This document shows positions 1-40,532 of a stretch of DNA of 40,532 nt, piece after piece. Position numbers and translations under genes: made by a program. Position 1 is the stretch's first letter, and every line of letters starts with the position of its first letter. Below the pieces are notes generated by a model. The model had not been told where the DNA came from. It saw only the letters and a program-made list of their open reading frames with translations, and searched no databases. Source of the stretch: a virus; IMG/VR virus record IMGVR_UViG_3300010370_000005, one strand, 5' to 3'.

Positions 1-123
1 ATACAGTTCACCGTTGTTCTTCAGGTAATAGAAGCAACCGTAGTAGTTCCAACCACCTGAGTAGTATGAACCAGTGTGCACTTCAACGTCGTAAACGTTG
101 GTGGCTCCACTCACAATCTGCGG
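1..123. repeat. Window-end duplication, copy 1 (identical to 40410-40532); closure overlap of a circular or circularly permuted contig
   Basis: Read directly: bases 1-123 (atacagttcaccgttgttcttcagg...cacaatctgcgg) recur exactly at 40410-40532. The repeat lies inside one continuous minus-strand reading frame. Confidence 0.95.
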
Positions 124-7600: not shown

Positions 7601-8161
7601 AAAACCAACTGAGTTGTCAACAAAACCTTGTGCACGACCCATCGTACTGGCCAAACGTTGTTCTTCTAGTTTGCGCTTATGCTGAATAGAAGCTACAAGA
7701 CTGCTGACAGGCTTATCCCAGCTAAGGTGTCCTGGAATGCCAAACTTAGTATTTGCCTCATCTGGCTGCAGCATTGTTGGCCGCTCAGTAAGGCCAAATT
7801 CCTCTATTGTTGGACGTCTTTTGTAACCGTCCCGGCCACCTCGAGAATTGTTGTGTCTTTGGTTGTAGAGTTTCTTTAGATCGTCGTCGTTGTAGTTCGT
7901 TAACTCTTCAGCTCGACGAATCTCGTTCATTCGAGAAATAGAGTCAATACCGGTTTCTCTCCAACCAGCAGTGATGGCTGCGTCAGCTACTTGCCCAGTG
8001 GTCGATCGCAAGTCATCAAAGCCAAAACTTTGAAACCACTGCGAAGGAGCATATGGAGTAAAGTTTTGACTGAGATTGCGCGCCTGATCAACAACCTGTT
8101 GGTTAACAGGATCGTTTGCTTGGCGGGCGTTGAGCGTCGTTTTTTTTACTTTTTCAACCAT
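4685..8161 (-). CDS. Internal virion / ejection protein in the T7 gp16 position (1158 aa), carrying a PI3/4-kinase-like region and a C-terminal R-S-ExE ADP-ribosyltransferase domain
   Basis: Position follows the gp14- and gp15-like genes. N-terminal Gly-rich membrane segments are present (VGFGLAMGTAIFDPVGLAIGFVPIIG). ART motifs are LKGYTNSDYVSLNQYL, EVWRG, GFTSTSF and SETELLI. The kinase-like string is IIDAYLANWDVVGNAPNYN...WRIDPGGAL. Confidence 0.8.
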   Translation of the reverse strand: MVEKVKKTTLNARQANDPVNQQVVDQARNLSQNFTPYAPSQWFQSFGFDDLRSTTGQVADAAITAGWRETGIDSISRMNEIRRAEELTNYNDDDLKKLYNQRHNNSRGGRDGYKRRPTIEEFGLTERPTMLQPDEANTKFGIPGHLSWDKPVSSLVASIQHKRKLEEQRLASTMGRAQGFVDNSVGFGLAMGTAIFDPVGLAIGFVPIIGEARYAKLGVTASRFMRGAEAGFVGSLGVEPLIYSAKIQEKADYDMMDSLTNIAFGTVAGGGLFAVGGKFYDGYKGLRQRSHAAALETSIKQLGNGKDVEISQIATVGASNKVYAVNPDAEAPVAGAVTLDPLKPGEQVYDPYLTASATKFDSELQASNPIKHYKPYQDVETSLSLMEQATGPKAAKVTAAQVAKAMQDPDFAEAVTMATKNGLQNNVAFYVRTKDGQVMAVKANRDSPIGLLTSKAFAEKGTIDMSKVSSDLKDLLAIHGVSVEEGSLDISYKGSYQLAKNNLTHVMEVKNAVFDPKQNQHDVVFGPEDSMQSLFVQDPTKEVFNDLNPKGKQAVESVLFDPDAYLQTYGDVYNSFAGYDTAFDVGNLEQVGKQEGTNKGGLHLDKNDNSPYYVKYQEANQSLNEWVAATLYRWYGVAMPKTTIVQDGDKVVGVASDYIKGMKTISPAEFKQLPKEQREAFAKNMIIDAYLANWDVVGNAPNYNMQLIEGKGVVWRIDPGGALLFRAQGAPKGAEFKPTVGEYKTLLQKNPDVFGEISLKDTEEAVARILKIPQEEVNKLVDTAVLHGMDPQLGASLKETLGFRRLDLEKTFDNVAKEVAKEQGTVKFFNYNDAKKFLDKFYDKLQTTLTPSEMSALKGYTNSDYVSLNQYLWGKEVLGKPIDANMDKRVALLDSIFKKIPETTEKYEVWRGNVRYTTFNDLLKDLPGANQFVWDQTIDGDKAYNMLKALEGKFITMHGFTSTSFNVETAKKFHGSYKGKSPMTKILVPEGTKATMAGAISSHSETELLINRGMKYRIKEVYKPSHEFGDPMVVIEVLPDNVRALPFEASDAQKLKMAKAYQAQPSSAADPTPMLGEPKDAVADTMKAIENDLKLVDSELESLQANLEAELANMDPELSTALKTTLENELKTLDQQQADAVTMHKAAQAAAVCIQKGM

Positions 8162-8169
8162 CGCCTACC

Positions 8170-10500
8170 TTAAGGAAATGAATTTTGAGTAGGGAACATG
8201 TCTATAGGCACGTTCTTCTGAGGCAACAAATTAGGATTGCTGAGTTGCTTGAAAGTAAAAAACACCTGCTTGCCTTGCTTATCGATAACTGGCTCAACAA
8301 CACCGTTAACTTCTACAACAAGTTGTATGGCTCCACCATCGCCCATATTGATCCAGTAACCTTGCTTTGCAATCGTGCCAAGATACTGTTCGTGGCGATA
8401 TTCCGGTTGTTTTGCTAAGGCTGGATTAAATGAACCTGGGGTTTGAATTTGAACGTATTGGCCAAGTAGTTTTGGATCTTTACGCAAACGATCTGCATTG
8501 GTGTGCACGACCTTTGGACTATAGACTTCTTGTGCGGTTGTGCCAACTCTAGGTTTTGGTATGACATACGTGCCGCCATCAATGTCGTAACCCTCTGAAA
8601 GAATCGCAAAATTCTTTTTCAACAAGTCTTGCGGGTTGCCACCACCTTTATTGACTAATTCAGTGGCGGTCATTCTGACAGCAAGGTTTCGCATTGAATC
8701 AAAAAACTCCAAGCGCTGCGGTAAGTTTCCTGTCAATGCACGACGATATTGCTCGCCAATGCGAATAGACGTAGCTTCAAGGTCGGCATAACTTGTGCCT
8801 GAACTTTTTAAGTTGCCTAGGTTTTCGCGCAGAGTCTTGGTGTTTGACGTCAAAGCATTGATGATCTTAGGTTCAGCAGCTGTTCCCATGGCCTGCATTG
8901 CCCAGAAGTACTCAGGGGGCAATGGGTTAGGGCCGGTTTGCAATTGCCTAAAAACAATTTGCAACTGACCCATGTACTTGCCATCTTTACCGGCGTAACG
9001 TTCAGACATGCTTCTCAAGCGTATGCCCAAGTCTTGCGGACTGGCGCCCAACAAATAACTTTTTTCGTTTTCTACTTCGGCTTGACTCAAGACCTTAAGC
9101 TCATGTTGAGGCACGCCGTCTTTCATTTGAAGTGCAAGAACAGAATTTCTTGCTTCTCCAACATTGCCGTTCTTTGCTTGTTGCTGCACAGCGGGATTTT
9201 GCATCCAATAAGCAACTTGATCTCGAGAGCGCTGTTCAAGAATGCCATTAGCAACTGTGGCAACCTCATTTCTAATCCTTGCCTCGTCAGCTGCGTTTTC
9301 GCCACTCACCTGAATGTTCTTGACAAAAGGAGCAATGTCAGCCGTTTTCATGTTGGCTAATCCTTGCGTAAGACTGTGCACCTTCTTGGCTACGGTAATT
9401 TCACTCCAAGCTTTGTCAACTAGGATCTTTGAACGATCAACGTCTCTAGGATCTGTTTGGTCTGTTACGGCGGCAATAGCGGCTCTCAACGAGTCCTTAT
9501 CTTTAAACTGAGGAAGACCTACGCCTGTTGACCTAATAGAGGCAACGCTGTCTTCAATCGCGGTTTCTACTTTAAATTTTTCGTAGCCTAAAACCGTGTC
9601 CTTACTTGTCTTTGAAGAATTGAGCAACCTAGCATATTGATCACCAGTAAAGCCATACAGCTTTTCTAACTTAAATTTACCTTCAGGTGTTTCAGTTAAA
9701 GAACGCAAAGCAGCGTGTGCTGATTTTGGATCATCAGCAATCATGCGCATGAAAGCAACCTCAGCAATCTTGTTAAGGTTTTCCTTTGCTTTTTGTGTTG
9801 TCCCAGGGCGGACAACTCCAATGTACTTATCTAATCCTTCTGGTTTTACGCCAAGAGCTGCTAGACCCTTAAGACCTTCGGGTACCTTGTCTGCTGGCAT
9901 GTCTCCTAAAGCAACACGCCACATCATCATCGTGCTGTCTAGCTGCAGAGGATCGCGTGAAACAAGAGTAGCAGATTTTTCAAGTCCATCTGAAAGAGCT
10001 AATTCAGACGCCTGTACTCGAAACCGACTTTCTGTCTCAATGGCTCGACCAAGTGCAAACGTCGTAAAGTCAGCAGAAAACTTTTCGTACTCGTTGTCAA
10101 AATACTTGTTTGAGCCTGGTTTGCTGGTGTCGTTTTTGCTTAGTATCCTTGCCACCATGGCTCTTGTCTGATTGACGAGGGTCTTTCCATCAGCCTCATT
10201 AAGACTTAAGCCTTTGTAAAAATTGACGTTTTGCTCCTCTTGGTTAGACAGTTGCTCAAATTCCTCAAGAAACTGTTGGTTAGCTCCAGCAGAAGCAACT
10301 GCCATATCTAAGGTGGCAGTTTCTCGTTGATTCTGATCCCACCATTTAAAGGCAGTACCTGCTGCTTCCTGCACATCCTTACCTGCTTGAATAGTGCCAC
10401 GAGCTCCAAGAGTAAAAGCATCCCTATCCCTCGCATCAAGACCTTGCTGGTATGCTGTGGGAAGTGTGCCGCGTTTTTCGTAGGTAGGTATTCTTGGCAT
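8170..10500 (-). CDS. Internal virion protein in the T7 gp15 position (776 aa)
   Basis: Long ORF between the gp14-like and gp16-like genes. The call rests on synteny only; no catalytic motif was seen. Confidence 0.55.
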   Translation of the reverse strand: MPRIPTYEKRGTLPTAYQQGLDARDRDAFTLGARGTIQAGKDVQEAAGTAFKWWDQNQRETATLDMAVASAGANQQFLEEFEQLSNQEEQNVNFYKGLSLNEADGKTLVNQTRAMVARILSKNDTSKPGSNKYFDNEYEKFSADFTTFALGRAIETESRFRVQASELALSDGLEKSATLVSRDPLQLDSTMMMWRVALGDMPADKVPEGLKGLAALGVKPEGLDKYIGVVRPGTTQKAKENLNKIAEVAFMRMIADDPKSAHAALRSLTETPEGKFKLEKLYGFTGDQYARLLNSSKTSKDTVLGYEKFKVETAIEDSVASIRSTGVGLPQFKDKDSLRAAIAAVTDQTDPRDVDRSKILVDKAWSEITVAKKVHSLTQGLANMKTADIAPFVKNIQVSGENAADEARIRNEVATVANGILEQRSRDQVAYWMQNPAVQQQAKNGNVGEARNSVLALQMKDGVPQHELKVLSQAEVENEKSYLLGASPQDLGIRLRSMSERYAGKDGKYMGQLQIVFRQLQTGPNPLPPEYFWAMQAMGTAAEPKIINALTSNTKTLRENLGNLKSSGTSYADLEATSIRIGEQYRRALTGNLPQRLEFFDSMRNLAVRMTATELVNKGGGNPQDLLKKNFAILSEGYDIDGGTYVIPKPRVGTTAQEVYSPKVVHTNADRLRKDPKLLGQYVQIQTPGSFNPALAKQPEYRHEQYLGTIAKQGYWINMGDGGAIQLVVEVNGVVEPVIDKQGKQVFFTFKQLSNPNLLPQKNVPIDMFPTQNSFP

Positions 10501-10502
10501 AG

Positions 10503-11027
10503 TTAACTCTTAGAAGGTGTTATTTTTCCAGGGGTGACCGTGCCGGTAGGTTTGGACCCCCAAACACCCATTTGTTTGCCCATGTAAGCGGATTGAGCAC
10601 CACCAGAAAGAAGTGTACCCATAGCGCCTGTAACGCCTTGACGATACGCGGCTTCCCCTTGGAATCGAGACCCGGCTGCTTCTGCTTCAAAATTTTGTTT
10701 TTGCAATTGACCACCGTACAAAATAGCCATTTGCTCCATCGTGCCTTGAATGGTCGTATCTTCTTGAAGATCAAGAATGCTACCAGTCATCTGGTAACCG
10801 CTGGCTCCTGCAGCAGCTCGCTGAGAACCAATGATCCTGCGAAGTCGAGAAGCTTCTGCTTCTGCTTCATAAGCCGCTTTTTCTTCGGCAGCCTTGGCAT
10901 TACGCTCCATGATCTGAGCGTTATAGTCAGCCGCCTTTTTAGCGTCTTTACCGGCCTGGTATTGGCCATAGGCCTGCATCGCAGTGCCTGCGACCATGGC
11001 CGATACAATCATGACTTCAACACCCAT
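10503..11027 (-). CDS. Internal virion protein in the T7 gp14 position (174 aa), with an N-terminal hydrophobic segment and an Ala/Gln-rich body
   Basis: The ATG at 11027 lies 7 nt after GAGG; the track start at 11030 is TTG. The sequence MGVEVMIVSAMVAGTAMQAYGQYQAGKDAKK and its size and position match the small inner-core proteins of podoviruses. Confidence 0.55.
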   Translation of the reverse strand: MGVEVMIVSAMVAGTAMQAYGQYQAGKDAKKAADYNAQIMERNAKAAEEKAAYEAEAEASRLRRIIGSQRAAAGASGYQMTGSILDLQEDTTIQGTMEQMAILYGGQLQKQNFEAEAAGSRFQGEAAYRQGVTGAMGTLLSGGAQSAYMGKQMGVWGSKPTGTVTPGKITPSKS

Positions 11028-11436
11028 CAAAGAACCTCACGTATCTGTAGTGGTCTTTCTGATCTGGGCCCCACTGCCGCAGCGTCGATTCTCGCTCGTA
11101 GCCTAACCACTCTAACCAGCGAATTGCCGCTGAAAAATCTGACGGCACGGTCGTTTGAAGTCGATGCAGCTTGAGTTCCCTTCTTAAAAATTCCTGATTT
11201 AACTTTATGTACTTTATACACTGAATTTTGTGGTTCGGAAATAGTGCGGATGGAATCATGTACGATTCGGCCACGCCTTTCCACAAAGGAATGATCCCGG
11301 CAATAGCCAGGGGTTTTCCGTAGTCCACTGCCGTAAACGAAATTGAACTTCGTTCTAGGGCAATCTTGTCCGTGAAAACAGGCCAGAGGGGTTTGATGAA
11401 GTCTAGGTGCCATGGTTCAAATGGTACTACGATCAT
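11017..11436 (-). CDS. GNAT-like (acyl-CoA N-acyltransferase fold) protein in the T7 gp13 position
   Basis: Start refined to MIVVPFEPWHLDF, whose ATG overlaps the upstream TGA (ATGA coupling at 11433-11436). The C-terminal string LHRLQTTVPSDFSAAIRWLEWLGYERESTLRQWGPDQKDHYRYV resembles the RimJ/RimL-type GNAT core. Confidence 0.5.
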   Translation of the reverse strand: MIVVPFEPWHLDFIKPLWPVFTDKIALERSSISFTAVDYGKPLAIAGIIPLWKGVAESYMIPSALFPNHKIQCIKYIKLNQEFLRRELKLHRLQTTVPSDFSAAIRWLEWLGYERESTLRQWGPDQKDHYRYVRFFDGC

Positions 11437-13469
11437 CTCTCTGAAACCGTCATTGCGTACATGATTGCCAGTACGGTGCATGGATGCGGAGTATCAGACT
11501 GCACGAGCAACTCAAACTGTCGTTCAGGAGCATGCTGTACCAATACTCGTTTGTCCCCTGTGAACAACCTAATTGAGCCCATAGGCATAGCACCAGACCG
11601 GAAAGGAATGATCTCTAGGGCTGCTCCGTTGGCACCAAATTTCAAATTAAAGGTGTCTACGAGCCTGAAAGTCACGCGTTCAATGCGACGTATCTTTCCT
11701 TGAGAAGGACCTGTCTGGGTTTGAACCTCAGGGTCGAGGGTACGTACTCGAGCCACGTAAGGAAGACCGACACTTACCTTTGAGGCAGTACGCGCTAAAG
11801 TAATCGAACCTGAGCTAACAACGCGATCTGGATGAACAGCTCCGTCAGCTAGAATTTGAACTGTCTCGCCTTCTAAATGATCCAATCCGGAAAGAACACT
11901 AACGGGAGAACCATCATAACTAATGCCGCTATCAATAAAGAAAGCATCCTCAACCACCATTCCTTTCGCGGTATCAAACGATTTTTCTAAGTATTCAACG
12001 TACTGCACGGTTTGACCGTCAATAGTTCGCTGAACGACTAGGTACAAAACCTCTTCTGATTCGTCATTTTTTGGCACAACAGCAATTTGCTTGACTTGAA
12101 CATTTGTGCCGCCAATGATATGGCGATGCCAAGCAACAACTTCTTGATCTGGCTCGTATGATAAGCAGCGCAGTTCTCCGGTCTGCAGCAACGTCCACAC
12201 CAAGTTGTCAGGAGAACGCGCGTAGGCAATTTGCTTGACGTTGCCAGTAGTAATGTGTTCTGCAAGCAGCGTAAGGTCTACTGAGGTGTAGCCGTCAATG
12301 TTGATGTCGTAAGACAATTCACGTACTTTTAAACGTGAACGGTCAATATACAGGGTAGTTCTACTTGCACCAACAGGGCGTTCGTTGGCAGTGCCGTCAG
12401 TAGTTTCACGAGAGATCGTTGCGTTTGTAGGTGTCAGCGCTTCATAGTTTCGTCCTGCTGACAAGATGAAAGGACCATCTGACGTACCAAGCTGCAAACG
12501 CTTTTCGCCGTAAATCCATCTAATCGCGTTCACCTGGTCAGTTGCCAAGGTTAAATTTAAAGCCGAGTCATCAAGTACTTCTGCCTTGGCGTTACTAGGA
12601 CTGAATGACTTAAAGTCAGAAGTTCGCGTACTCCAAATGGTCGCAGGCTTTGACGCGCTTGCAGCAAAGAATAAACGTTCTTGGAAGAACGCAACTGAGG
12701 TTGGCCAACCAAGAGTATTTGACCAAGCACCTAGTCTCCAATCCTTTGTGGCGTTACCAGCACCAGTAGAGCCAAATGGAAAGTCAGGGTCAACAACGAC
12801 AGTAACAGTTGTTGGGTTTGTGTAGGCAGTAATGGTGCCTGCGCCCCAAACGGCAGGAGAACCATTTTTAAAACGAAACCAGCGCCCAACGTCAGTGGCT
12901 GCAAAAATACCACTGCTTGACGTAATAGTAGCTGTGCCAGTTAAAGCAGACGTGTGTACTGTTACAGTACCTGTGTTCACGTCGTTGTATGGACCATCTT
13001 TGTACAAGTAAAGGTCTAATGACCAGTTAGTAGGTCCTAAACGATTTAATGTTCTTGGTTGATAGTCTTTGTGAACTAGGTAAAGAACGTCGGCAGACTG
13101 AGTGAAATCAAGATTGTCAAGATCGTCTTCTGACCAAGGCGAAATGATCTCGTAAGGAGCCGTGCCTGTTCCATTAAGTAAGACAGATTCATTTCTGTAA
13201 AACCTAATGTAGTAGTGACCAAACTCAAGGATGTATGCTTGTTCAGTTGAAAAGATAAAAGGAATAAGTTTGACCTTGCGGTTGCTAAACTTTACCTCTG
13301 TGATAAAACGCGTACCTGAACGCTTAGTGATGCCGCCGTGAGAGAAGATGATAAAGTTCTCGCAGCGCTCAATTGACGTTGCGTATTTTTGCAAGTCAAC
13401 ACGACCGTACAAACGAGGAGAAATCTCCCCGCCGGTAAAGTTAGTTTGAATTGGCGTTGTACGAGACAT
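11433..13469 (-). CDS. Tail tubular / nozzle protein (T7 gp12 position, 678 aa)
   Basis: The N-terminus TPIQTNFTGGEISPRLYGRVDLQKY...GGITKRSGTRF is a motif I recognise from podovirus tail-tube proteins. The gene follows the adaptor-like gene. Confidence 0.6.
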   Translation of the reverse strand: MSRTTPIQTNFTGGEISPRLYGRVDLQKYATSIERCENFIIFSHGGITKRSGTRFITEVKFSNRKVKLIPFIFSTEQAYILEFGHYYIRFYRNESVLLNGTGTAPYEIISPWSEDDLDNLDFTQSADVLYLVHKDYQPRTLNRLGPTNWSLDLYLYKDGPYNDVNTGTVTVHTSALTGTATITSSSGIFAATDVGRWFRFKNGSPAVWGAGTITAYTNPTTVTVVVDPDFPFGSTGAGNATKDWRLGAWSNTLGWPTSVAFFQERLFFAASASKPATIWSTRTSDFKSFSPSNAKAEVLDDSALNLTLATDQVNAIRWIYGEKRLQLGTSDGPFILSAGRNYEALTPTNATISRETTDGTANERPVGASRTTLYIDRSRLKVRELSYDINIDGYTSVDLTLLAEHITTGNVKQIAYARSPDNLVWTLLQTGELRCLSYEPDQEVVAWHRHIIGGTNVQVKQIAVVPKNDESEEVLYLVVQRTIDGQTVQYVEYLEKSFDTAKGMVVEDAFFIDSGISYDGSPVSVLSGLDHLEGETVQILADGAVHPDRVVSSGSITLARTASKVSVGLPYVARVRTLDPEVQTQTGPSQGKIRRIERVTFRLVDTFNLKFGANGAALEIIPFRSGAMPMGSIRLFTGDKRVLVQHAPERQFELLVQSDTPHPCTVLAIMYAMTVSER

Positions 13470-24157: not shown

Positions 24158-25132
24158 ATGGCTCACTTAATCGAATCCATGGCATACGCCAACTCAACTC
24201 CCTGGCACGGTCTAGGTAACCAGGTCAGTGATGCATTAACCCCGCAAGAGATGATCCTTGCTGCCGGTCTTGATTGGACCGTCAGTCGCAGATCTATGTT
24301 CACCACCCAGTCAGCTGCTGACTTTCAGGCTTCAGAAGCAACTCTGAAGACCAACGATTGGGGCGTCCTCGTTCGTGATTCAGACAACAAGATCCTAGGT
24401 CCTTGCGGCAAGAATTACGTGCCCATGCAGAACAGCGAAGTTTTTGCCTTCTTCGATCGCTTTGTCAAAGCAGGTCACATGAAGATGGAAACCGCAGGAT
24501 CCTTAGACGGTGGCCGTCAGGTCTGGGGCCTTGCTGCCATCAACAAGGGCTTTGCTTTGCCCGGCGGTGACGAAGTCAACGGATACTTGCTGCTCAATCA
24601 GCCGCACGTCTGGGGTAAGTCCTTGACCATCATGTTTACGCCCATCCGAGTCGTCTGCAACAACACCTTGACGCAAGCTCTCGGACAAGCTGGTGAGCGC
24701 TTTACCATGTCGCACATACGCCAGTTTGACCAGGATGTCATCCAGAAGGCCGAAACAGCCTTAGGTCTTGCTACCCATCAACTTGATGCTTTCAAGGCCA
24801 CTGCGGAGCTCCTAGCAAGAGTGTCGTACCAAGAAAACAAGGTCACTGAGTACATCGCCAAGCTTTTCAATCCAGCTCTTGTTGGCGGCGAAATAACCCG
24901 AGACCAATTTACAAGATCCGCGGACGAAGTCTATAATTGCATTCACACGCAGCCAGGTGCAGACTTGTCCGAAGGTTCATGGTGGTCTGCCTTGAATGCG
25001 GTTACGTTCTACGTTGATCACAAAGCCGGTCGCAACCGCGATGCTGCCTTGAATTCGGCGTGGTTTGGCCCGCGAGCCGCTCTCAAGCGGAAGGCCTTAG
25101 ACCTGGCAGTCGAGTACGCGCAAGCTGCCTAA
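24158..25132 (+). CDS. DUF932 / phage-plasmid-like protein (TIGR03299-type, 324 aa)
   Basis: The N-terminus MAHLIESMAYANSTPWHGLGNQV...TPQEMILAAGLDWTVSRR matches the characteristic start of DUF932 proteins, as I recall the family. The SD is gaaaggag. Confidence 0.7.
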   Translation: MAHLIESMAYANSTPWHGLGNQVSDALTPQEMILAAGLDWTVSRRSMFTTQSAADFQASEATLKTNDWGVLVRDSDNKILGPCGKNYVPMQNSEVFAFFDRFVKAGHMKMETAGSLDGGRQVWGLAAINKGFALPGGDEVNGYLLLNQPHVWGKSLTIMFTPIRVVCNNTLTQALGQAGERFTMSHIRQFDQDVIQKAETALGLATHQLDAFKATAELLARVSYQENKVTEYIAKLFNPALVGGEITRDQFTRSADEVYNCIHTQPGADLSEGSWWSALNAVTFYVDHKAGRNRDAALNSAWFGPRAALKRKALDLAVEYAQAA

Positions 25133-25148
25133 TAAAGGAGAAACCAGA

Positions 25149-25376
25149 ATGGTGACTTACCGGTTCATTCAAGTGCCTGAACAGGCCTTGGCTAAACAGG
25201 CAAAGGCCATTCTGGCGATCCTTGAAGAAGCGCATGAAATTGGCAAAACTGAATTGTTGACCCTGATTTCTGCTCGTCTCAAGAGTCGCCAGAAGCCCCA
25301 ACGTCTGTTGTCCTATTATCAGGGCAGCTTGATTAAAGCAGGGGCTATAGAAACAATACGTTCTGTGGTACGATAG
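25149..25376 (+). CDS. Hypothetical small protein (75 aa)
   Basis: SD aaaggag; helical composition, possibly a winged-helix fold. No motif recognised. Confidence 0.5.
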   Translation: MVTYRFIQVPEQALAKQAKAILAILEEAHEIGKTELLTLISARLKSRQKPQRLLSYYQGSLIKAGAIETIRSVVR

Positions 25377-25438: not shown

Positions 25439-26278
25439 ATGGCAAATGAAAGAGGAAAAGCAATCGATAAGACATTCCTGTCTGTCGACAACGCTGAGGA
25501 ACGCGGGTTCTTGCACCGTGATTACATCGCCCATTGTCTTCGCTGGACGCACGTCGTCAAGTGGCTGCATCAAGGCGGTCGTTACAAAACGGCTCGGATC
25601 CTAGACGTTGGTTGCGGTAAAGAGATGCCGTTGGCCAAGCTCATGCACTCGTCTCGTCTTGGTCCCCAGTTCTACGCAGCTGCCGACGTCAGCAAATTGT
25701 CAATGCCAGACCAGTTTGCCAAGTCAACTTGGAAACCCAGTCAGTTGCTAGGCGAGTGTGATGCAGCCGTTTTGAAGCCAGAGCAAATAGAGCAGACGCC
25801 AAATACGATCGTCTGTTTTGAAGTTGCCGAACACATTGAACCAGAGCACTGCCGTCGTTTACTGGCCAACTTTGGCAACTTGCTAGAGCCAGAAGGCACC
25901 TTGTTTATCTCAACGCCTTGTTGGGATCCTGATGTAGGAGCCGCTGCGAACCACGTCAACGAGATGACTTACCTTGCTTTTGGCGCTTTGCTAGAAGACG
26001 TAGGTTGGCGTGTTGAAGGTCATTGGGGCACGTTCGCCTCGATGCGCGATTACAAAGACGAGTTGCCACCAGCACACAAGGAGGTGTTTGATGCAATGCG
26101 AGACTACTACGACAGCAACTACTTGGCAACCATTTTCGCGCCGCTTTATCCATCGCGCAGTCGCAATTGTTTGTGGCAGCTTAAGTGGAACCCAGGCGGT
26201 GGCAGACAATTCCCTGATCTACGTGATGTCGAAGGACGTTGGGGTAGTTCAGAGAAGTGGCGAGAGCTTCTTGCTTAA
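25439..26278 (+). CDS. Class I SAM-dependent methyltransferase, small-molecule type (279 aa)
   Basis: Motif I is ARILDVGCGKE. Post-I/II features are VCFEVAEHIEPE and LLEPEGTLFISTP. I saw no DPPY/NPPY and no PCQ...ENV DNA-methyltransferase motifs. Confidence 0.75.
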   Translation: MANERGKAIDKTFLSVDNAEERGFLHRDYIAHCLRWTHVVKWLHQGGRYKTARILDVGCGKEMPLAKLMHSSRLGPQFYAAADVSKLSMPDQFAKSTWKPSQLLGECDAAVLKPEQIEQTPNTIVCFEVAEHIEPEHCRRLLANFGNLLEPEGTLFISTPCWDPDVGAAANHVNEMTYLAFGALLEDVGWRVEGHWGTFASMRDYKDELPPAHKEVFDAMRDYYDSNYLATIFAPLYPSRSRNCLWQLKWNPGGGRQFPDLRDVEGRWGSSEKWRELLA

Positions 26279-26352
26279 TGTAGGTTGGTTTTTGGTGGCG
26301 ATGATCTCATTGATCATCGTCATTTTATGGATTGAAATTAGAAAGGACAAAC

Positions 26353-26715
26353 ATGTGGAACGACATCAAAGCATTTCACGAGAAATTCGGCCTGCAATAC
26401 GACGGGCCGCCAAGGGACTTGCCCAAAGAGTTGGCAAGCTTTCGGATCGGTTTCATCTTTGAGGAACTCGATGAACTCATTGTCGCCGAAAATAAAACCG
26501 ATCAGCTCGACGCGTTGGTGGACCTCTGCTACGTGGTCATGGGCACTGCTTATCTACAAGGCTTCGACTTCCAAGCCGCGTGGGACCGAGTCCATGCTGC
26601 AAACATGGCGAAAGTCCGTGGTCCGTCAGCGCGCAGTCAAGCTTTCGATGTCATCAAGCCCGAGGGCTGGACTGCTCCAGATCTATCGGACCTAGCAGGA
26701 GAAGGCAATGGCTGA
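26353..26715 (+). CDS. MazG-like all-alpha nucleoside triphosphate pyrophosphohydrolase (120 aa)
   Basis: Start refined to MWNDIKAFHEKFG after the SD aaagga. The string RIGFIFEELDELIVAE...QLDALVDLCYVVMGTA...VHAANMAKV fits the EExxE...DxxD metal-binding pattern of phage MazG/HisE-like proteins. Confidence 0.75.
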   Translation: MWNDIKAFHEKFGLQYDGPPRDLPKELASFRIGFIFEELDELIVAENKTDQLDALVDLCYVVMGTAYLQGFDFQAAWDRVHAANMAKVRGPSARSQAFDVIKPEGWTAPDLSDLAGEGNG

Positions 26716-26875
26716 CTACCTCAAGTTTATCGCTGACACTCAAAAGGAAGCTGAGGAAAAGGCTGCTCAACACATCAAGGGTGAGGATCCCATGAGGTCT
26801 CCAGCAATCTACTCGTCTCAGCCCACTGAAAACGGCAAGTGGCTCGTTGTCGTTAAAGTGTGGGGACTTGACTGA
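26708..26875 (+). CDS. Small coupled ORF (55 aa; below the ORF-track cut-off)
   Basis: Its ATG at 26708 overlaps the MazG stop by 8 nt, and its TGA overlaps the next ATG (TGATG). It translates as MADYLKFIADTQKEAEEKAAQHIKGEDPMRSPAIYSSQPTENGKWLVVVKVWGLD. Confidence 0.5.
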   Translation: MADYLKFIADTQKEAEEKAAQHIKGEDPMRSPAIYSSQPTENGKWLVVVKVWGLD

Positions 26876-27876
26876 TGATCTTTATTCTTGAAGGACCTGA
26901 TGGTGTAGGTAAGACTACACTTGCTCAACACATGGCCAAGAAGCTCGGTGCAGTCTATTTGCATTTGAGTTATCGCTGGCCTGATCACATGTTTGAGTAT
27001 CACACAGCAGCCATTCGTTGGGCCATTCGCAAAAGCCGCAAGCAACCTGTCATCATTGATAGGTGGTGGCCAAGTGAAGCCTTGTATGCTGCTGAATATC
27101 GTGGTGGTAGTAAGTGGGCGCACATGGGTCGCATGATGGATCGTGTTGCTCGCAAACATGGTGCAGTCTACGTCTACTGTTTGCCTGAAGACCTTGTCGA
27201 GTACGAAAAACGCTTTGACAAGCTAAAGACAGAACGCGAAGAGATGTACGACAACGTGATGGGTGTTGCTAAACGTTACTTGCACTTGTGGCATGGTGAC
27301 AAGTCGCATGTACCAAACGAGAACTACACTGACTTGCTGCTAAGGACAGGTGGTGTGCACACGCGCGCAGATCACATCAAGTACTCGATTGAAACTTGGG
27401 GTGACAAGCTTGATTTGTTCACAGATTACGCAGTCAATCGTGCAAGTCACTTGTTGTCTTCGCAATTGCCTGACAGTATTGATGAACCTAATTTCCTTGG
27501 TCACATCTCTTCAGCGCAATATCTTATGGTTGGCGAGCGCGTCAATCCTAAGTACAACAACTTGTTTTGGCCTTGGTATGACTATGGTCACTCAAGTCTT
27601 TTCTTAGCTCAAGCGCTGCATCAAGTACCTGCACGCGAAGAACTATTTGTGTGGGCTAACTCAATCAACTTTGATGGCACAAAGAACGACATGATTGAGA
27701 AAGCTTATGGATTTAAACCAACGTTGAAAGTCGTAGCACTTGGCAAGACTGCTTTGACGCACATTACTAAGGCAGGTATTCCAGTGCACGAGCACGTGAA
27801 GCATCCTGCTTTTGTGAGACGCTTTGAAGGTGACGTTGATTACCTGAGAGGAGTATTAAGACATGCTATCCACTAA
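26875..27876 (+). CDS. Fusion protein: N-terminal thymidylate-kinase-like dNMP kinase plus C-terminal uracil-DNA-glycosylase-superfamily (family-4-like) domain (333 aa)
   Basis: Kinase part: IFILEGPDGVGKTT (P-loop) and VIIDRWWPSEALYAAEYRGG (the Tmk DRY/SxxAY region). C-terminal part: YLMVGERVNP (compare LMIVGEGPG), PWYDYGHSSLFLAQAL, VPAREELFVWANSI (compare IPREEVYITNIV), KVVALGKTA and KHPAFVRR (compare FHPAYLLR). Confidence 0.7.
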   Translation: MIFILEGPDGVGKTTLAQHMAKKLGAVYLHLSYRWPDHMFEYHTAAIRWAIRKSRKQPVIIDRWWPSEALYAAEYRGGSKWAHMGRMMDRVARKHGAVYVYCLPEDLVEYEKRFDKLKTEREEMYDNVMGVAKRYLHLWHGDKSHVPNENYTDLLLRTGGVHTRADHIKYSIETWGDKLDLFTDYAVNRASHLLSSQLPDSIDEPNFLGHISSAQYLMVGERVNPKYNNLFWPWYDYGHSSLFLAQALHQVPAREELFVWANSINFDGTKNDMIEKAYGFKPTLKVVALGKTALTHITKAGIPVHEHVKHPAFVRRFEGDVDYLRGVLRHAIH

Positions 27877-28615
27877 TACGCAATGGATTAAAGCACTTGA
27901 GAATGTGCTTGAAACAGGAAAAGTCTCTGCACCACGAGGCATGCCAATCAAAGAGCTCATGGCATACCAAACGTGCACTCCAATGGAGTGGCCTGTTGTA
28001 ACTGTAAAAGAACGAGAGCTTGGCTACAAGTTCATGGCTGCTGAAGCTGCGTGGATCTTGAGTGGCGACAATCGCGTGAGAAGCATTCGTCCATACAGTA
28101 AAGCGATCAGCAACTTCAGTGATGATGGTCATTTCTTTCATGGTGCTTACGGGCCCATGATTCGCGATCAATTGCATTTTGTGATTGATGCTTTGAATGC
28201 TGACAAAGATACAAGGCAAGCGGTCATGACCATTTGGCGTCCAAACCCAAGGCCTAGTAAAGACATCCCATGCACAGTGAGCGTGCAGTTCTTGATTCGT
28301 GATGGGTTGCTGCACGTTGTTGACACCATGCGCAGCAGTGACTTGTGGCTTGGTTGGCCTTACGACATCTTCAACTTCAGCATGCTAGCTCGCTACGTGA
28401 TTTGTCATTTGAAGCAGAAGCCAGAACTTGGAGTCATCGTGCTGCAAGCAGGCAGTGCTCACTTGTATGAACAGAACTGGTTGCCAGCTCAAGCAATCGT
28501 TGGTGGCAAATGCACAGTTGAAGAAACACCCACCATACCTTGGTTTGAGAATGGCGATGATTTAATTGATTGGTTATGGGAGCAAGCTAATGGCAACGGT
28601 ATTCAAAAGACCTGA
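27863..28615 (+). CDS. Thymidylate-synthase-fold pyrimidine-nucleotide C5 transferase, dCMP hydroxymethylase-like (Asp at the uracil/cytosine-discriminating position; 250 aa)
   Basis: IPCTVSVQFLIRDGLLHVVDTMRSSDLWLGWPYD aligns to E. coli ThyA [33 protein letters not shown]. The catalytic Cys, the RS.D motif and the HLY motif are conserved, and Asn177 is replaced by Asp, as in T4 gp42. The SD is gagaggag. Confidence 0.75.
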   Translation: MLSTNTQWIKALENVLETGKVSAPRGMPIKELMAYQTCTPMEWPVVTVKERELGYKFMAAEAAWILSGDNRVRSIRPYSKAISNFSDDGHFFHGAYGPMIRDQLHFVIDALNADKDTRQAVMTIWRPNPRPSKDIPCTVSVQFLIRDGLLHVVDTMRSSDLWLGWPYDIFNFSMLARYVICHLKQKPELGVIVLQAGSAHLYEQNWLPAQAIVGGKCTVEETPTIPWFENGDDLIDWLWEQANGNGIQKT

Positions 28616-29198
28616 TCAAGATGCGTACTTTCTGGCTATGGCAACTCTTGTGTCACTGCGCGCGACGTGTCGCAGACGCCGCGTCGGTTGTGTACTTGTG
28701 GACAGTAATCGTCATGTGCTCGCTACTGGCTATAACGGCGTTGCTCGTGGGCGCGATCACTGCCTTGACCATCCATGTGCTGGCGCTGATTTTAGACCGG
28801 GCCTGGGGTTGGATCAATGCGAAGCGATCCATGCAGAACAGAACGCGATGCTTCAATGCAGAGACACGCAAGCCATCGAGACCGCGTACATTACGGTGAG
28901 TCCATGCATTACATGCGTGAAACTACTAATGAATACCGGCTGCAAACGAATCGTGTTCATAGAACCCTATGCACACAGTCAAGCAGCAGACCTATGGAAA
29001 GGCGAATGGAAACACTATGGAACAGTTGAGCATGTTTATGCCGAACTCAGGTTGGCGTCCGCCAAAGGAGTTCCCGAATTTGACGAACGTCAAGAGGATC
29101 TCTTTGGACTGCGAAACCAGGGATCCACATTTAATAGACCGGGGTCCGGGCGGAGTGAGGTACGACGGGAACGTAGTGGGAGTGAGTCTTGCGACTGA
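28590..29198 (+). CDS. dCMP deaminase (zinc-dependent CDA fold) with a roughly 60-aa C-terminal extension
   Basis: Start refined to MATVFKRPDQDAYFLAMA. The zinc motifs HAEQNA and PCITCVKLL are present. The ORF tail runs 182 nt into the PolA gene in another frame. Confidence 0.8.
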   Translation: MATVFKRPDQDAYFLAMATLVSLRATCRRRRVGCVLVDSNRHVLATGYNGVARGRDHCLDHPCAGADFRPGLGLDQCEAIHAEQNAMLQCRDTQAIETAYITVSPCITCVKLLMNTGCKRIVFIEPYAHSQAADLWKGEWKHYGTVEHVYAELRLASAKGVPEFDERQEDLFGLRNQGSTFNRPGSGRSEVRRERSGSESCD

Positions 29199-30891
29199 AG
29201 ACCAAGCTTGGTATTTTCCTTTTGCGCATGGGGGTGGCGATAACCTTGATAAGAATCAGGTGCTATCTTTCTTGGCTGATGTACTGGCACAACAGACGGA
29301 GAAAATAGGTGCGAATCTCATATACGACCTTGAATGGTTACGTGCAGAAGGCATTCAAGTCAATGGTCCCATACGCGACATCCAAATCGCGGAGCCGCTT
29401 ATTGACGAGAACCAGTCCAGCTACAGCCTCTCGGCGCTTGCTAAGAAGTACCTTGGCGAAGACAAAGATGAAACCCTACTTAGGCAAGCAGCTGTATCTG
29501 CTGGAGTCGACCCAAAAGGTGGACTTTGGAAACTTGCAGCCAGGTACGTTGGTCCCTATGCCGAAGCAGATGCTGCACTCCCTCTCAAGATTTACGACTT
29601 ACAGAAAGAGATCCTAATCAAGGAAGACTTGTGGGACATCTTTACTCTTGAGTCTGATCTTGTCAACATCATGCTTGACATGCGATTCAAGGGCGTGCGC
29701 GTCGACGTCGATAAAGCCGAGGAGCTAAACGACCAAGGCTTAAAAGACGAAGCCAGATTACTCGGCGAACTAAGAGATCTCGTTGGTTACGTGATTGACC
29801 CATGGTCAGGTGACGATCTTGGCAGAGCCTTTAAGAAGTTAAACGTCTGGTACCCTGAGACTGCAAAGGGTAATGCCTCCTTCACTGGCGACTGGTTGGC
29901 TAATCACGAATTGCCAATGCCAAGGAAGGTTGCTGAGTATCGTAAACTAAATAAGATGCGGCGTGACTTTGTTGAAGGCATGGTGTTGAACATGCAGCAC
30001 AGTGGTCGCATTCACTGCCAGTTCCATGCGCTGCGTAAAGACGAGTCAGGAACTAGATCAGGTCGCTTCAGCAGCTCAATGCCTAACTTGCAGCAAGTAC
30101 CTGCTCGTGACGAACATTGGGGTCCATTGATTCGCGGTTTGTTCTTGCCAGACGAAGGCATGCACTGGGCTAGTTGTGATTACAGCCAGCAAGAACCTCG
30201 TATCCTTGTCCACTACGCAGACATCCTTGGTTTGAAAGGCAGCGAAGAAGCAGTCAGAACTTATTCTGAATCTGCTGATACTGACTTCCATCAAATGGTT
30301 GCTGACATGGCTGGCATCAAGCGTAAGCAAGCTAAGACCGTGAACCTTGGTATGTTTTACGGCATGGGTATTTACAAGCTCAGTCAAGAACTAGGTCTTA
30401 GTCAGGCTGAAGCAAAGCCGTTGTTTGAACAGTATCACGACCGGGTTCCATTTGTCAGGCAGCTCAGTCAACGTTGCACGCAGTCAGCAACGCAGAAGGG
30501 ATGGATCAAGACCTTGCTCGGTCGCAAGCGTCACTTCGATCTTTGGGAACCAGCAGACAGCCAGAACACTTGGCCTAATCGCGAAAACCCATTGACCATG
30601 GAACAGGCGAAGAAGGTTTGGCCTGATCGTCCATTGAGAAGGTCGATGACGCATAAAGCTTTGAATGCTTTGATTCAAGGTGGGGCGGCCGACATGACAA
30701 AGAAAGCGATGGTTGACCTGTATAAAGCAGGAGAAATCGCACACATCCAAGTGCACGACGAACTTTGTTTTAGTGTAAGTGATCGGGCACATGGCCAACG
30801 CATTCAGACAATTATGGAAGAGTGTGTTAAAATAGCAGTACCAATCAAGGTCGACTTAGAGATGGGTCCGACCTGGGGCGATAGCAAATAA
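29017..30891 (+). CDS. Family A DNA polymerase with a 3'-5' exonuclease domain (624 aa)
   Basis: Exo I is ISLDCETRD. Motif A is ASCDYSQQEPRIL, motif B is RKQAKTVNLGMFYGMG and motif C is IQVHDELCF. Start taken at MEQLSMF; other in-frame ATGs lie at 28969, 29032 and 29038. Confidence 0.9.
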   Translation: MEQLSMFMPNSGWRPPKEFPNLTNVKRISLDCETRDPHLIDRGPGGVRYDGNVVGVSLATEDQAWYFPFAHGGGDNLDKNQVLSFLADVLAQQTEKIGANLIYDLEWLRAEGIQVNGPIRDIQIAEPLIDENQSSYSLSALAKKYLGEDKDETLLRQAAVSAGVDPKGGLWKLAARYVGPYAEADAALPLKIYDLQKEILIKEDLWDIFTLESDLVNIMLDMRFKGVRVDVDKAEELNDQGLKDEARLLGELRDLVGYVIDPWSGDDLGRAFKKLNVWYPETAKGNASFTGDWLANHELPMPRKVAEYRKLNKMRRDFVEGMVLNMQHSGRIHCQFHALRKDESGTRSGRFSSSMPNLQQVPARDEHWGPLIRGLFLPDEGMHWASCDYSQQEPRILVHYADILGLKGSEEAVRTYSESADTDFHQMVADMAGIKRKQAKTVNLGMFYGMGIYKLSQELGLSQAEAKPLFEQYHDRVPFVRQLSQRCTQSATQKGWIKTLLGRKRHFDLWEPADSQNTWPNRENPLTMEQAKKVWPDRPLRRSMTHKALNALIQGGAADMTKKAMVDLYKAGEIAHIQVHDELCFSVSDRAHGQRIQTIMEECVKIAVPIKVDLEMGPTWGDSK

Positions 30892-31661: not shown

Positions 31662-31985
31662 ATGATGACTGTATTCGTGGTGCAAGAGCCACGCGGAATT
31701 AACCTAATGCCGGCTGAACAGTATGGCGAGCTTAAGGTGCTGTTGCCTCCAGGCAACGTGGCTTACAGTGCTGCGCCCACAGTGGCTAGGTTAAAGCGAG
31801 GACTTGCGAGATTTACTGACAACGATTACCTACTCATGGTTGGCGATCCTGCCGCTATCGCAGTAGCAGGCGCCGTAGCAACGATGCTGAACAATGGACG
31901 CATGAAAGTGCTGAAGTGGGATCGTCAAGAGATGCGGTATTACGTGGTTGAATTTGATCTAATGAGGAGAAGCGATGACTACTGA
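31662..31985 (+). CDS. Hypothetical protein (107 aa)
   Basis: SD aaaggag immediately before ATGATG; no motif recognised. Confidence 0.55.
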   Translation: MMTVFVVQEPRGINLMPAEQYGELKVLLPPGNVAYSAAPTVARLKRGLARFTDNDYLLMVGDPAAIAVAGAVATMLNNGRMKVLKWDRQEMRYYVVEFDLMRRSDDY

Positions 31986-39677: not shown

Positions 39678-40532
39678 TTATGGGTTTATGACCATGAAGC
39701 GGCCGTTGAAACCGGCGTCACTTGAAAATTCGCCTTCGCCGTTGCTGCCCATGTGCAAGACTCGACCGTCAGACATCAAGAATTGCAAGTTAAAGCTTGA
39801 GCCATACGGGTACGCAGAAGCGCGGTAATCAACAATGGTTTGGTGTACGCCGCAGGCCGAACCATCTTCAGAGGCCCAAGGTCCTGGCAGCAAGACAGGG
39901 CGGCTATATGAAACGGTTGTATTGTCGCTGCGGTAAGTACCCATGTTCACACCGTAGCCTAGCAAGTACATGCGTCCGGTTGAGTCTTGCACCATCCACC
40001 CGGTTCCCGCTTCACTGTAAACGTAGGGGAAGATACGAGTAATTGAACCTCTTGGAAACACGCGGTCACTGTTGGTCGTTACCCCTGCGATGTAGGTAAA
40101 AGTCCTATTGCGAGTCGTGTCGCAAATAGCCCCTGGTTGCGTAGGACTTGACGAGTTAGTCGTCGTGCCGTTACCAAATTGACCGTTGCCGTTGTAACCC
40201 CAGCAGTACAAGTTGCCGGGAAAGCTAACGTACGGCGCAGTACCTAAGAAGGTGTCTGGGTTACCCTCAATGGCGGCGACCGTTACGTACTGAGAACAAC
40301 CGTTTACGTAGAACTCAGCAAAGGTTTGCGAGGTTCCGCAGCGCACAAAAGCGCTTTGGTTTGTTGTGTTGCCGTTACCAAGGTTGCCGTATGGGTTGTA
40401 ACCGCAACCATACAGTTCACCGTTGTTCTTCAGGTAATAGAAGCAACCGTAGTAGTTCCAACCACCTGAGTAGTATGAACCAGTGTGCACTTCAACGTCG
40501 TAAACGTTGGTGGCTCCACTCACAATCTGCGG
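39678..40532 (-). CDS. Tail fibre with RCC1-like repeats, C-terminal part (same gene as 1-1269; 40410-40532 duplicates 1-123)
   Basis: Open frame with blades CGYNPYGNLGNGNTT and WGYNGNGQFGNGTTT, stop at 39678. The track M at 40523 is an internal GTG, not a real start. Confidence 0.85.
   Translation of the reverse strand, partial: PQIVSGATNVYDVEVHTGSYYSGGWNYYGCFYYLKNNGELYGCGYNPYGNLGNGNTTNQSAFVRCGTSQTFAEFYVNGCSQYVTVAAIEGNPDTFLGTAPYVSFPGNLYCWGYNGNGQFGNGTTTNSSSPTQPGAICDTTRNRTFTYIAGVTTNSDRVFPRGSITRIFPYVYSEAGTGWMVQDSTGRMYLLGYGVNMGTYRSDNTTVSYSRPVLLPGPWASEDGSACGVHQTIVDYRASAYPYGSSFNLQFLMSDGRVLHMGSNGEGEFSSDAGFNGRFMVINP
40410..40532. repeat. Window-end duplication, copy 2 (identical to 1-123)
   Basis: Exact 123-nt match to the window start. 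Confidence 0.95.

Follow-up and report, generated by a model that had tools for sequence, protein, structure and literature searches.

A compact phage gene cassette for predicted cytosine hydroxymethylation, with a virus-restricted methyltransferase and a kinase fused to a uracil-DNA glycosylase fold

Results

Six co-oriented genes beside a phage DNA polymerase

Positions 25439-29198 (+ strand) of the viral sequence IMGVR_UViG_3300010370_000005 from IMG/VR, 40,532 nucleotides (nt) long and referred to below in its entirety as the window, hold a gene cassette that a preliminary description had read as a T4-like pathway for the modification of a DNA pyrimidine, probably cytosine. All six open reading frames (ORFs) named there were located; they are co-oriented and lie directly 5' of a family-A DNA polymerase gene (PolA). 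In order, they encode a class I S-adenosylmethionine (SAM) methyltransferase (MT), a MazG-like pyrophosphohydrolase, a protein of 55 amino acids (aa; orf55), a thymidylate kinase (Tmk)-like kinase fused to a domain with the fold of uracil-DNA glycosylases (UDG), an enzyme of the thymidylate synthase (TS) fold and a dCMP deaminase. Family searches assigned the MT, MazG, kinase, TS and deaminase proteins and returned no family for orf55. Stop and start codons had been said to overlap along the whole operon, and this holds for four of the five internal junctions, with overlaps of 8 nt between the MazG gene and orf55, 1 nt between orf55 and the kinase gene (TGATG), 14 nt between the kinase and TS genes and 26 nt between the TS and deaminase genes (deaminase ATG at 28590); at the sole exception, the MT and MazG genes are separated by a 74-nt gap. 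Downstream, the tail of the deaminase gene overlaps the 5' end of PolA.

The TS-fold enzyme carries the signature of T4 dCMP hydroxymethylase

The fifth gene (27863..28615, + strand; Pfam Thymidylat_synt, 5.9e-20) encodes a predicted dCMP 5-hydroxymethylase, or 5-hydroxymethyl-dCMP synthase. Its closest solved relative is MilA, a CMP 5-hydroxymethylase (1.4e-21), with thymidylate synthases at ~2e-14. The protein was aligned with E. coli ThyA, T4 gp42, a SPO1-type (Goe9) dUMP hydroxymethylase and the enzyme of Xp12 that makes 5-methyl-dCMP. Its Cys137 and Asp168 fall on E. coli C146 and N177, and the dCMP-type Asp noticed in the preliminary description thus does sit at the N177 position in the alignments with ThyA and gp42. 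At the signature positions 143, 146, 147, 166, 169 and 177 (E. coli ThyA numbering), the window protein reads D-C-T-R-D-D, the same as T4 gp42; the corresponding residues are LCHRDN in ThyA, DCNRDN in the Goe9 enzyme and NCPRDD in the Xp12 enzyme. Compared with ThyA, the window enzyme therefore has D, D and T in place of N177, L143 and H147.

Replacement of Asn177 by Asp in TS homologues selects cytosine (Lee et al. 2026 PMC13326640; Yang et al. 2021 PMC8670742), an acidic residue at position 143 accompanies a hydroxymethyl product and admits water (PMC13326640), D169N is the mark of 5-hydroxy-dCMP synthases, and position 147 also tracks the modification (PMC13326640; PMC8670742). Since the signature is identical to that of gp42, the window enzyme is predicted to be a dCMP hydroxymethylase. 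The pathways for 5-methylcytosine in Xp12 and for 5-hydroxycytosine in RB69 and DLP3 likewise use a TS homologue with Asp177 acting on dCMP and an adjacent deaminase (PMC13326640), yet neither product is predicted here. A 5-hydroxy-dCMP synthase of the RB69 gp48 type was ruled out by the retention of Asp at position 169, which is kept in 68/68 TS homologues at MT-linked loci and in all of a second set of loci seeded with the TS (both described below), and an Xp12-type 5-methylcytosine synthase by D143/T147, as against N143/P147 in Xp12.

A virus-restricted family of SAM methyltransferases

The first gene (25439..26278, + strand) encodes the MT, a protein of 279 aa assigned to Pfam Methyltransf_23 (1.8e-12), with weak family-level matches to UbiG (NCBIfam, 5.5e-7) and Hen1. 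Its AlphaFold2 model (pLDDT 90.1) was matched by Foldseek to generic small-molecule O-, N- and C-methyltransferases at TM ~0.5-0.65, and a Foldseek search of BFVD yielded, besides a single unnamed member of the family, no useful match. The family is large, comprising 1335 homologues (320 clusters at 50% identity with E<=1e-30), and is essentially virus-restricted: in 185,579 species genomes it has 4 copies, all on phage-like contigs of metagenome-assembled genomes (MAGs) that carry the same cassette. Over 48 members, 52-89% identical to the window protein, 52 columns are invariant, and the family is acidic (median pI 6.1).

No Cys is invariant across the family: the homologue from Stenotrophomonas phage AXL3 has Phe at the position of C33, and 10/50 have Val or Asn at that of C161. 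We therefore set aside the candidate role of a SAM-dependent C5-pyrimidine methylase, that is, a new thymidylate synthase or dCMP methylase. Inspection of the MT sequence also revealed no DPPY-like (D/N/S)PP(Y/F) motif and no PCQ motif; taken with the lack of an invariant Cys, this makes it unlikely that the enzyme methylates C5 of pyrimidines or is a DNA methylase of the classical kind. We predict instead that the MT is a tailoring enzyme for the hydroxymethylcytosine nucleotide or base. O-methyltransferase domains have been noted beside phage dioxygenases that form hydroxymethyl-pyrimidines, the product not being identified (PMC13229309).

A Tmk-like kinase fused to a UDG-fold domain

The 333-aa fusion protein is encoded at 26875-27876 (+ strand). 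Its residues 1-190 (26875..27444) form a Tmk-like dNMP kinase domain, to the first ~130 residues of which the thymidylate-kinase family matches are confined. The P-loop reads GPDGVGKTT, and the motif DRWWPSEALYAAEYRGG aligns with the mononucleotide (NMP)-site motif DRHDLSTQAYQGGGRG of E. coli Tmk, so that both the P-loop and the DR(Y/H/F)..S...Y....RG element of the Tmk family are present. Residues G7, D9, G12, K13, D62, R63, Y71 and R76 are invariant in the family; Pfam Thymidylate_kin (PF02223) is found in 53/63 homologues of the fusion, and the window protein matches phrog_761 at 4.9e-14. Retention of the P-loop and of the Tmk mononucleotide-site motif argues for a dNMP kinase rather than a kinase acting on bases in DNA, and its substrate would be 5-hydroxymethyl-dCMP or the methylated form of this nucleotide. 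Stand-alone kinases of 157-202 aa adjoin the same type of TS in the Pelagibacter phage HTVC119P, in the Manatee Spring phage MW202510 and elsewhere.

Residues 196-333 (27460..27876) form the second domain. The AlphaFold2 model of the fusion, built with 63 homologues, is confident over the full chain (pLDDT 95.9, pTM 0.93). Foldseek aligned its N-domain with the SPbeta kinases YorR/BSU20280 and with dNK and TMPK structures, and its C-domain with the family-4 UDG TM0511 (1e-4), UdgX (3e-4) and the Thermus UDG (1.7e-3); the structures concerned (1vk2, 6iod and 1ui1) were all matched at probability 1.0 and E 1e-4 to 2e-3. The model thus indicates that the C-domain has a UDG fold, as had been proposed from the sequence, and Pfam UDG is matched by 4/63 of the homologues (best E 1.4e-5). 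Divergence is considerable: Pfam finds nothing in the window C-domain alone, and a profile of the domain gave only noise against the sequences of the PDB and 2 matches in a set of 5.8 billion proteins, so that stand-alone homologues are essentially lacking. Conserved within the family are V-G-[D/E] (62/63), Asn262 (58/63) and His310-Pro311 (62-63/63), placed as expected when judged by strand order. The domain may share with the UDG superfamily an acidic residue after the motif-A Gly, the second-strand Asn and the motif-B His-Pro. It has the fold of family-4 UDG and UdgX and of the defence glycosylases Brig1 and Brig3, which excise (glucosyl-)5-hydroxymethylcytosine (5hmC); Brig3 shows that a UDG fold can read 5hmC (PMC13160076). 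Unlike family-4 UDG and UdgX, it lacks the Fe-S cysteines, no Cys occurring in the window domain and none being conserved in the family, and it differs from the superfamily at large in being phage-encoded, found almost exclusively fused to a kinase and too divergent for detection by profile in the PDB.

Thymidine hypermodification systems offer another parallel, in that they combine a hydroxymethyl-pyrimidine handle with a clustered P-loop kinase and glycosylase-like protein (PMC8989533), whereas in the window the base would be cytosine, the TS is of the dCMP type and the kinase has the Tmk NMP site. An identity of the C-domain as an aGPT-Pplase was ruled out on the grounds that those proteins have a helix-hairpin-helix fold and not a UDG fold (PMC8989533, PMC11472151) and that the TS is of the dCMP type.

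MazG-like protein, orf55, deaminase and polymerase

The MazG ORF spans 26332-26715 (+ strand) and opens at TTG 26332; the likely start is ATG 26353. The product (26353..26715), an all-alpha (d)NTP pyrophosphohydrolase, matches Pfam PRA-PH (2.7e-13) and the nucleotide pyrophosphohydrolases of phrog_671 (9.6e-28), D. radiodurans DR2231 comes nearest to it among solved structures (E 2e-7), and EExxE and D motifs can be recognised in its sequence. By analogy with T4 gp56 it may act as a dCTPase/dUTPase. No family matches orf55 (26708..26875, + strand); it has a good ribosome-binding site (GGAG), its start overlaps the MazG stop and its stop overlaps the kinase start. Because it was found only in the nearest relatives of the window (survey loci L008-L012 and L088), orf55 is an accessory gene and not a conserved member of the cassette.

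The dCMP deaminase (28590..29198, + strand, in an ORF that opens at 28566) matches Pfam dCMP_cyt_deam_1 (2.1e-21) and phrog_174 (1.9e-41) and has the HAE and PCxxC zinc motifs. Its C-terminal tail of ~60 aa is of low complexity, non-conserved and missing from most homologues (146-190 aa). This tail overlaps the PolA reading frame by at least 118 nt, since in the ORF opening at 28969 the exonuclease domain of PolA begins at residue 38. The polymerase itself (29017..30891, + strand), a family-A enzyme with a 3'-5' exonuclease (DNA_pol_A 8.7e-66, DNA_pol_A_exo1 4.5e-10), has an uncertain start codon (29017-29038; the longest ORF opens at 28969) and follows the deaminase in most related loci.

The cassette in other viruses

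The set of components had been thought new for a phage with this podovirus-type structural gene order. This did not hold, as the set recurs, in the same gene order, in the siphovirus AXL3 (gp27-gp31), in Pseudoxanthomonas phage PW916 and in the Manatee Spring phages MW202510 and MW202621. It is also present in hundreds of metagenomic contigs; existing annotations had assigned it to thymidylate synthesis. AXL3 gp27-gp31 correspond to MT, hydrolase, kinase (with UDG-like C-domain), TS and deaminase, with the same TS signature, and are ~28-44% identical to the window proteins. Unlike the window, AXL3 has siphovirus structural genes, unrelated to those of the window, and an additional ThyX (PMC7504290). 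Only 2 of 37 restriction enzymes cut AXL3 DNA, TasI (AATT) and Tru1I (TTAA), while none of the 35 whose sites contain G/C did so; the study that described this phage deduced from the result that its bases are modified, left the nature of the modification undetermined and took gp27-gp31 for a thymidylate synthesis pathway (PMC7504290). Because 5hmC alone, in T4gt DNA, blocks ~82% of type II enzymes (PMC7653180), the AXL3 data fit 5hmC or something bulkier. No paper on AXL3 and hypermodification was found in the literature searched.

We fetched 80 IMG/VR loci through the MT. Each of those with enough flanking DNA carries a TS homologue, and the signature is of the DCTRDD type in 68/68, one having Ser at position 147. 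These loci show at least four gene arrangements: that of the window (DUF932-ORF75-MT-MazG-kinase/UDG-TS-deaminase-PolA); MT-MazG-TS-deaminase, without the kinase; TS-MT-deaminase; and one whose TS precedes the MT by 5.4 kb, within a module that also holds a trimeric dUTPase-family protein, SSB and ribonucleotide reductase. As this co-occurrence spans unrelated virion types (podo-, sipho- and myovirus), it argues for a functional link between the MT and the hydroxymethylase. It likewise strengthens the earlier suggestion that the MT would act on the modified base.

From the TS clade, 65 loci could be evaluated. MT, MazG and deaminase accompany the TS in 51, of which 45 also have the UDG fusion, and 11 have the kinase and TS only, as in HTVC119P. 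Kinase and hydroxymethylase thus behave as the core, with MT, MazG and deaminase as a co-inherited upgrade. Several otherwise complete cassettes are without the UDG-fold domain, which is therefore an optional accessory of the pathway and dispensable for the cassette. Of the pathway members listed in the preliminary description, the UDG domain and orf55 do not belong to the conserved set.

Two groups of loci deserve separate mention. An 87-kb contig with a tail-sheath gene (L173, JGI 3300045921) carries at 7265-11599 the order cpYpsA-ORF-MT-kinase/UDG-TS(DCTRDD)-Amidoligase_2, the MT, kinase/UDG and TS genes overlapping and a GATase_6-like gene lying ~7 kb further on, an arrangement suggestive of a more complex cytosine hypermodification that builds on the MT-kinase/UDG-TS trio. 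In the cultured pelagiphage HTVC119P (L005, 5502-6786) a small kinase and a DCTRDD-type TS, annotated 'thymidylate synthase', occur on their own, as they do in L113, L122, L124, L139, L149-151 and L163-166 and in many marine contigs; such phages, abundant in the ocean, may contain at least some 5hmC.

Genome context

The first 123 bases of the window (1-123) are repeated exactly at its end (40410-40532), and the window is therefore a complete phage genome with ~40.4 kb of unique sequence, the repeat representing a direct terminal repeat or else an overlap from circular assembly. A T7-like structural module, with its genes in T7 order, lies on the strand opposite to the cassette. No ThyX or second TS is present in the window. 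Among the ORFs scanned, from which the smallest were excluded, there was no family match to a glycosyltransferase, in agreement with the preliminary description, and no phage RNA polymerase was seen among them. A promoter and terminator scan of 23-32 kb gave counts equal to those in shuffled sequence, and observed versus expected restriction-site counts revealed no clear avoidance of G/C palindromes.

Directly 5' of the MT, at 24158-25376 (+ strand), lie the genes for a DUF932 protein (PF06067, 5e-40) and a basic protein of 75 aa. Both are kept there in nearly all loci of the podovirus type and are not conserved at that place in AXL3 or the other arrangements. The order DUF932-ORF75-MT-MazG-orf55-kinase also occurs on a 3.8-kb contig of a Lake Mendota MAG labelled 'Terrimicrobiaceae bacterium' (L088, JBIPMC010000486.1), whose MT is 100% identical to that of the window; the contig is phage DNA binned in error and locates the phage of the window in a freshwater lake. 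Elsewhere in the genome, a 1158-aa protein of the internal-virion type (4685-8161, - strand) has, at residues ~829-1039, an Alt-like domain of the ADP-ribosyltransferases (phrog_3895, 5.6e-18; phrog_802, 1.4e-8) and may be an ejected host-modifying enzyme. An RCC1-repeat protein (PF00415, 1.5e-7) is encoded at 39678-40523 (- strand) and a Pam3_gp32-like protein (PF23992, 1.6e-27) at 31662-31985 (+ strand).

Discussion

In T4, hydroxymethylcytosine DNA is produced by the gp56 dCTPase/dUTPase, the gp42 dCMP hydroxymethylase, the gp1 dNMP kinase, the Cd deaminase and the alpha- and beta-glucosyltransferases. The cassette described here appears to follow the same logic, with four of the same pool-level activities and the DCTRDD signature of gp42. 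It differs from the T4 system in several respects: in place of a gp1-like kinase there is a Tmk-like one with a UDG-fold domain attached, the pyrophosphatase most resembles the MazG-like DR2231, a SAM methyltransferase takes the tailoring slot in which no glycosyltransferase was found, and the whole is packed into ~3.8 kb beside PolA in a 40-kb podovirus. The genes that complete replacement of dC after the T4 manner would call for, namely pyrophosphatase, kinase and deaminase with the substrates presumed here, are encoded together and co-inherited.

On balance we consider it probable that the cassette serves a pre-replicative, T4-like replacement of cytosine by 5-hydroxymethyl-dC, further tailored by the MT. 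The MazG-like pyrophosphatase would convert dCTP (and dUTP) to the monophosphate, thereby both removing the canonical competitor and feeding the pathway, and the TS-fold enzyme would then turn dCMP into 5-hydroxymethyl-dCMP with methylene-tetrahydrofolate. Phosphorylation of the modified dNMP by the Tmk-like kinase, followed by conversion to the triphosphate by the host nucleoside-diphosphate kinase, would provide a substrate for incorporation by the phage PolA. The dCMP deaminase would divert part of the dCMP to dUMP and so let the host ThyA keep up the supply of dTTP; in the absence of ThyX or a second TS from the window, dTMP would have to come from the host enzyme. The MT would methylate hydroxymethylcytosine either as a nucleotide or in DNA. 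To our knowledge, all characterised tailoring enzymes of hydroxymethylcytosine (glucosyl-, arabinosyl- and carbamoyl-transferases) target the hydroxyl, and a methyl ether on the 5-CH2OH oxygen is preferred for this reason, the predicted product being 5-methoxymethylcytosine. As for the UDG-fold domain, we favour a role either in excising U or 5-hydroxymethyluracil (5hmU) arising from the deaminase-rich pool or in binding the pyrimidine nucleotide for the kinase. Of this scheme, the domain identities, the hydroxymethylase signature, the Tmk site motif, the UDG fold and the co-occurrence come from the computations; the substrate specificities, the completeness of dC replacement and the connection of the MT with the base are inferred, and the atom that receives the methyl group is a prediction.

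Beyond the gp42 signature, the absence of ThyX or a second TS in the window and the resistance of AXL3 DNA, the cytosine assignment made in the preliminary description is supported by metaviromes. Metavirome contigs that pass a selection for modified cytosine bring together TS(D177), PRA-PH, dCMP deaminase and PolA; in MetaGPA, a TS gene lies <=3 kb from a deaminase gene in 104/149 contigs predicted to be modified, as against 17/277 unmodified ones, and a 5hmC carbamoyltransferase was found in the clusters (PMC8670742; bioRxiv 10.1101/2024.12.05.627091). The MetaGPA cassette resembles our proposal both in these genes and in having a tailoring enzyme act on the 5hmC hydroxyl, that enzyme being a carbamoyltransferase there and a SAM methyltransferase in the window. 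In the MetaGPA text and supplements searched, we found neither the Methyltransf_23 family nor a kinase-UDG fusion (PF13489, PF03167 and PF02223 are unmentioned). Pairs of a TS homologue and a dNMP kinase drive the incorporation of modified bases (PMC13326640), and the minimal kinase and TS loci of pelagiphages parallel them.

Several observations weigh against this interpretation. The meanings given to the signature residues are correlative, with few characterised enzymes behind them, and the modification of AXL3 could be plain 5hmC. Foldseek matches the MT equally weakly to O-, N- and C-methyltransferases and so gives no specific clue to its substrate. Among the 65 TS-seeded loci, two have MazG and deaminase but no detectable MT, another has the MT and neither MazG nor deaminase, and the co-occurrence counts of MT and TS are not phylogenetically independent. 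We know of no precedent in DNA for SAM-dependent O-methylation of an unactivated primary alcohol on a nucleobase. Finally, occurrence only as a fusion is odd for a general repair glycosylase.

One competing account, which we regard as rather unlikely, is that the DNA contains plain 5hmC and that the MT, engaged in RNA, protein or small-molecule methylation or in SAM-linked counter-defence, merely sits in an early nucleotide module. A genome like that of T4gt would indeed need no more than hydroxymethylase, kinase, MazG and deaminase, most of the restriction resistance can be put down to 5hmC alone (PMC7653180), Foldseek found no nucleotide-specific relative of the MT, and in one arrangement the MT lies 5.4 kb from the TS, between SSB and ribonucleotide reductase. 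Such an account does not, however, explain why every evaluable MT locus, across unrelated virion types, has a DCTRDD-type TS, why the MT, kinase/UDG and TS genes are translationally coupled in a myovirus contig or why the MT family is virtually absent from cellular genomes, and its 52 invariant columns argue for one fixed substrate. If the MT does act on the modified base, it might do so at another atom, giving for instance N4-methyl-5-hydroxymethylcytosine, or transfer a non-methyl group derived from SAM, possibly on DNA after replication. We judge this to have only a small chance of being correct. The N-methyltransferases ToxA, pavine and coclaurine NMT match the MT as well as O-methyltransferases do in both structure and sequence searches, and the amidoligase that follows the trio in one myovirus contig hints at elaborate chemistry there; but the hydroxyl is the target of the characterised tailoring enzymes, the weak family matches of the MT are to the O-methyltransferases UbiG and Hen1, and the (D/N/S)PP(Y/F) motif of amino-methyltransferases was not seen.

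Two further readings are given little credence. The kinase-UDG fusion might work on DNA, the UDG fold flipping 5hmC out, the P-loop domain phosphorylating its 5-CH2OH group and the MT acting downstream, as a cytosine counterpart of 5-HMUDK and aGPT-Pplase. The fixed inter-domain packing of the fusion model (pTM 0.93), the near-exclusive occurrence of the UDG-fold domain as a kinase fusion, the ability of UDG-superfamily enzymes to recognise 5hmC (Brig3, PMC13160076) and the existence of 5-HMUDK fusions to other hypermodification domains, with co-occurring amidoligases (PMC8989533; L173), could all be cited for it. We nevertheless find it improbable: the mononucleotide-site motif DR..S...Y....RG is kept, in minimal loci the partner of the TS is a kinase without the UDG domain, and a dNMP kinase is what the pathway needs there, the UDG domain is dispensable in complete cassettes, and its fold is not that of the aGPT-Pplases (PMC8989533). 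A search of the ViI hydroxymethylase neighbourhood with a hidden Markov model of the kinase gave no match and is uninformative, as the ViI 5-HMUDK gene was not located there. Ordinary salvage, in which the deaminase makes dUMP, the TS dTMP and the kinase dTDP for canonical DNA, would agree with the database names (thymidylate synthase, thymidylate kinase) and with the annotations of AXL3 and PW916 (PMC7504290, PMC9414467). It is very hard to reconcile with a TS that lacks the N177, L143 and H147 of dTMP synthases, with the separate ThyX and restriction-refractory DNA of AXL3 (PMC7504290) and with the enrichment of the cassette neighbourhood in C-modified DNA (bioRxiv 10.1101/2024.12.05.627091), and we hardly credit it.

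Going beyond MT-tailored replacement of cytosine as such, one may tentatively suppose that the virus-restricted MT family O-methylates 5hmC, that 5-methoxymethylcytosine replaces cytosine in widespread podoviruses of fresh and marine waters, AXL3-like siphoviruses and some myoviruses, and that the kinase-fused UDG domain is a new pyrimidine-reading module of this pathway; we hold this fuller proposal to be possible but doubtful. In the literature searched, we found no description of a virus-restricted MT strictly linked to a hydroxymethylase or of a dNMP kinase carrying a fused UDG-fold domain, and no paper mentioning methoxymethylcytosine. If correct, the proposal predicts a new natural DNA base and extends the known decorations (sugar, carbamoyl and amino-acid) by a new chemistry, the SAM-dependent alkylation of a hydroxymethyl handle, and the MT would be a candidate enzyme for the selective labelling of 5hmC. 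We may also speculate that a methyl ether would be a cheap cap that could not be stripped by a deglucosylase such as BapA or by sugar-removing enzymes, and that it would hide 5hmC from defences aimed at 5hmC or glucosyl-5hmC, such as those of the Brig3, McrBC and GmrSD types (PMC13160076).

Base modifications of phages decide which restriction, CRISPR and glycosylase defences work against them; they complicate the sequencing and engineering of therapeutic phages and have repeatedly yielded enzymes for epigenomics. The present cassette is common in aquatic viromes, and AXL3, grown on S. maltophilia D1585, is a cultured candidate for phage therapy whose restriction-proof DNA has been chemically unexplained since 2020. 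As reconstructed here, the pathway is a compact and mobile T4-type hydroxymethylcytosine route that has gone unrecognised in cultured phages. Even if the MT does not tailor 5hmC, hundreds of genes now called 'thymidylate synthase' or 'thymidylate kinase' would still be re-annotated as members of a hydroxymethylcytosine pathway.

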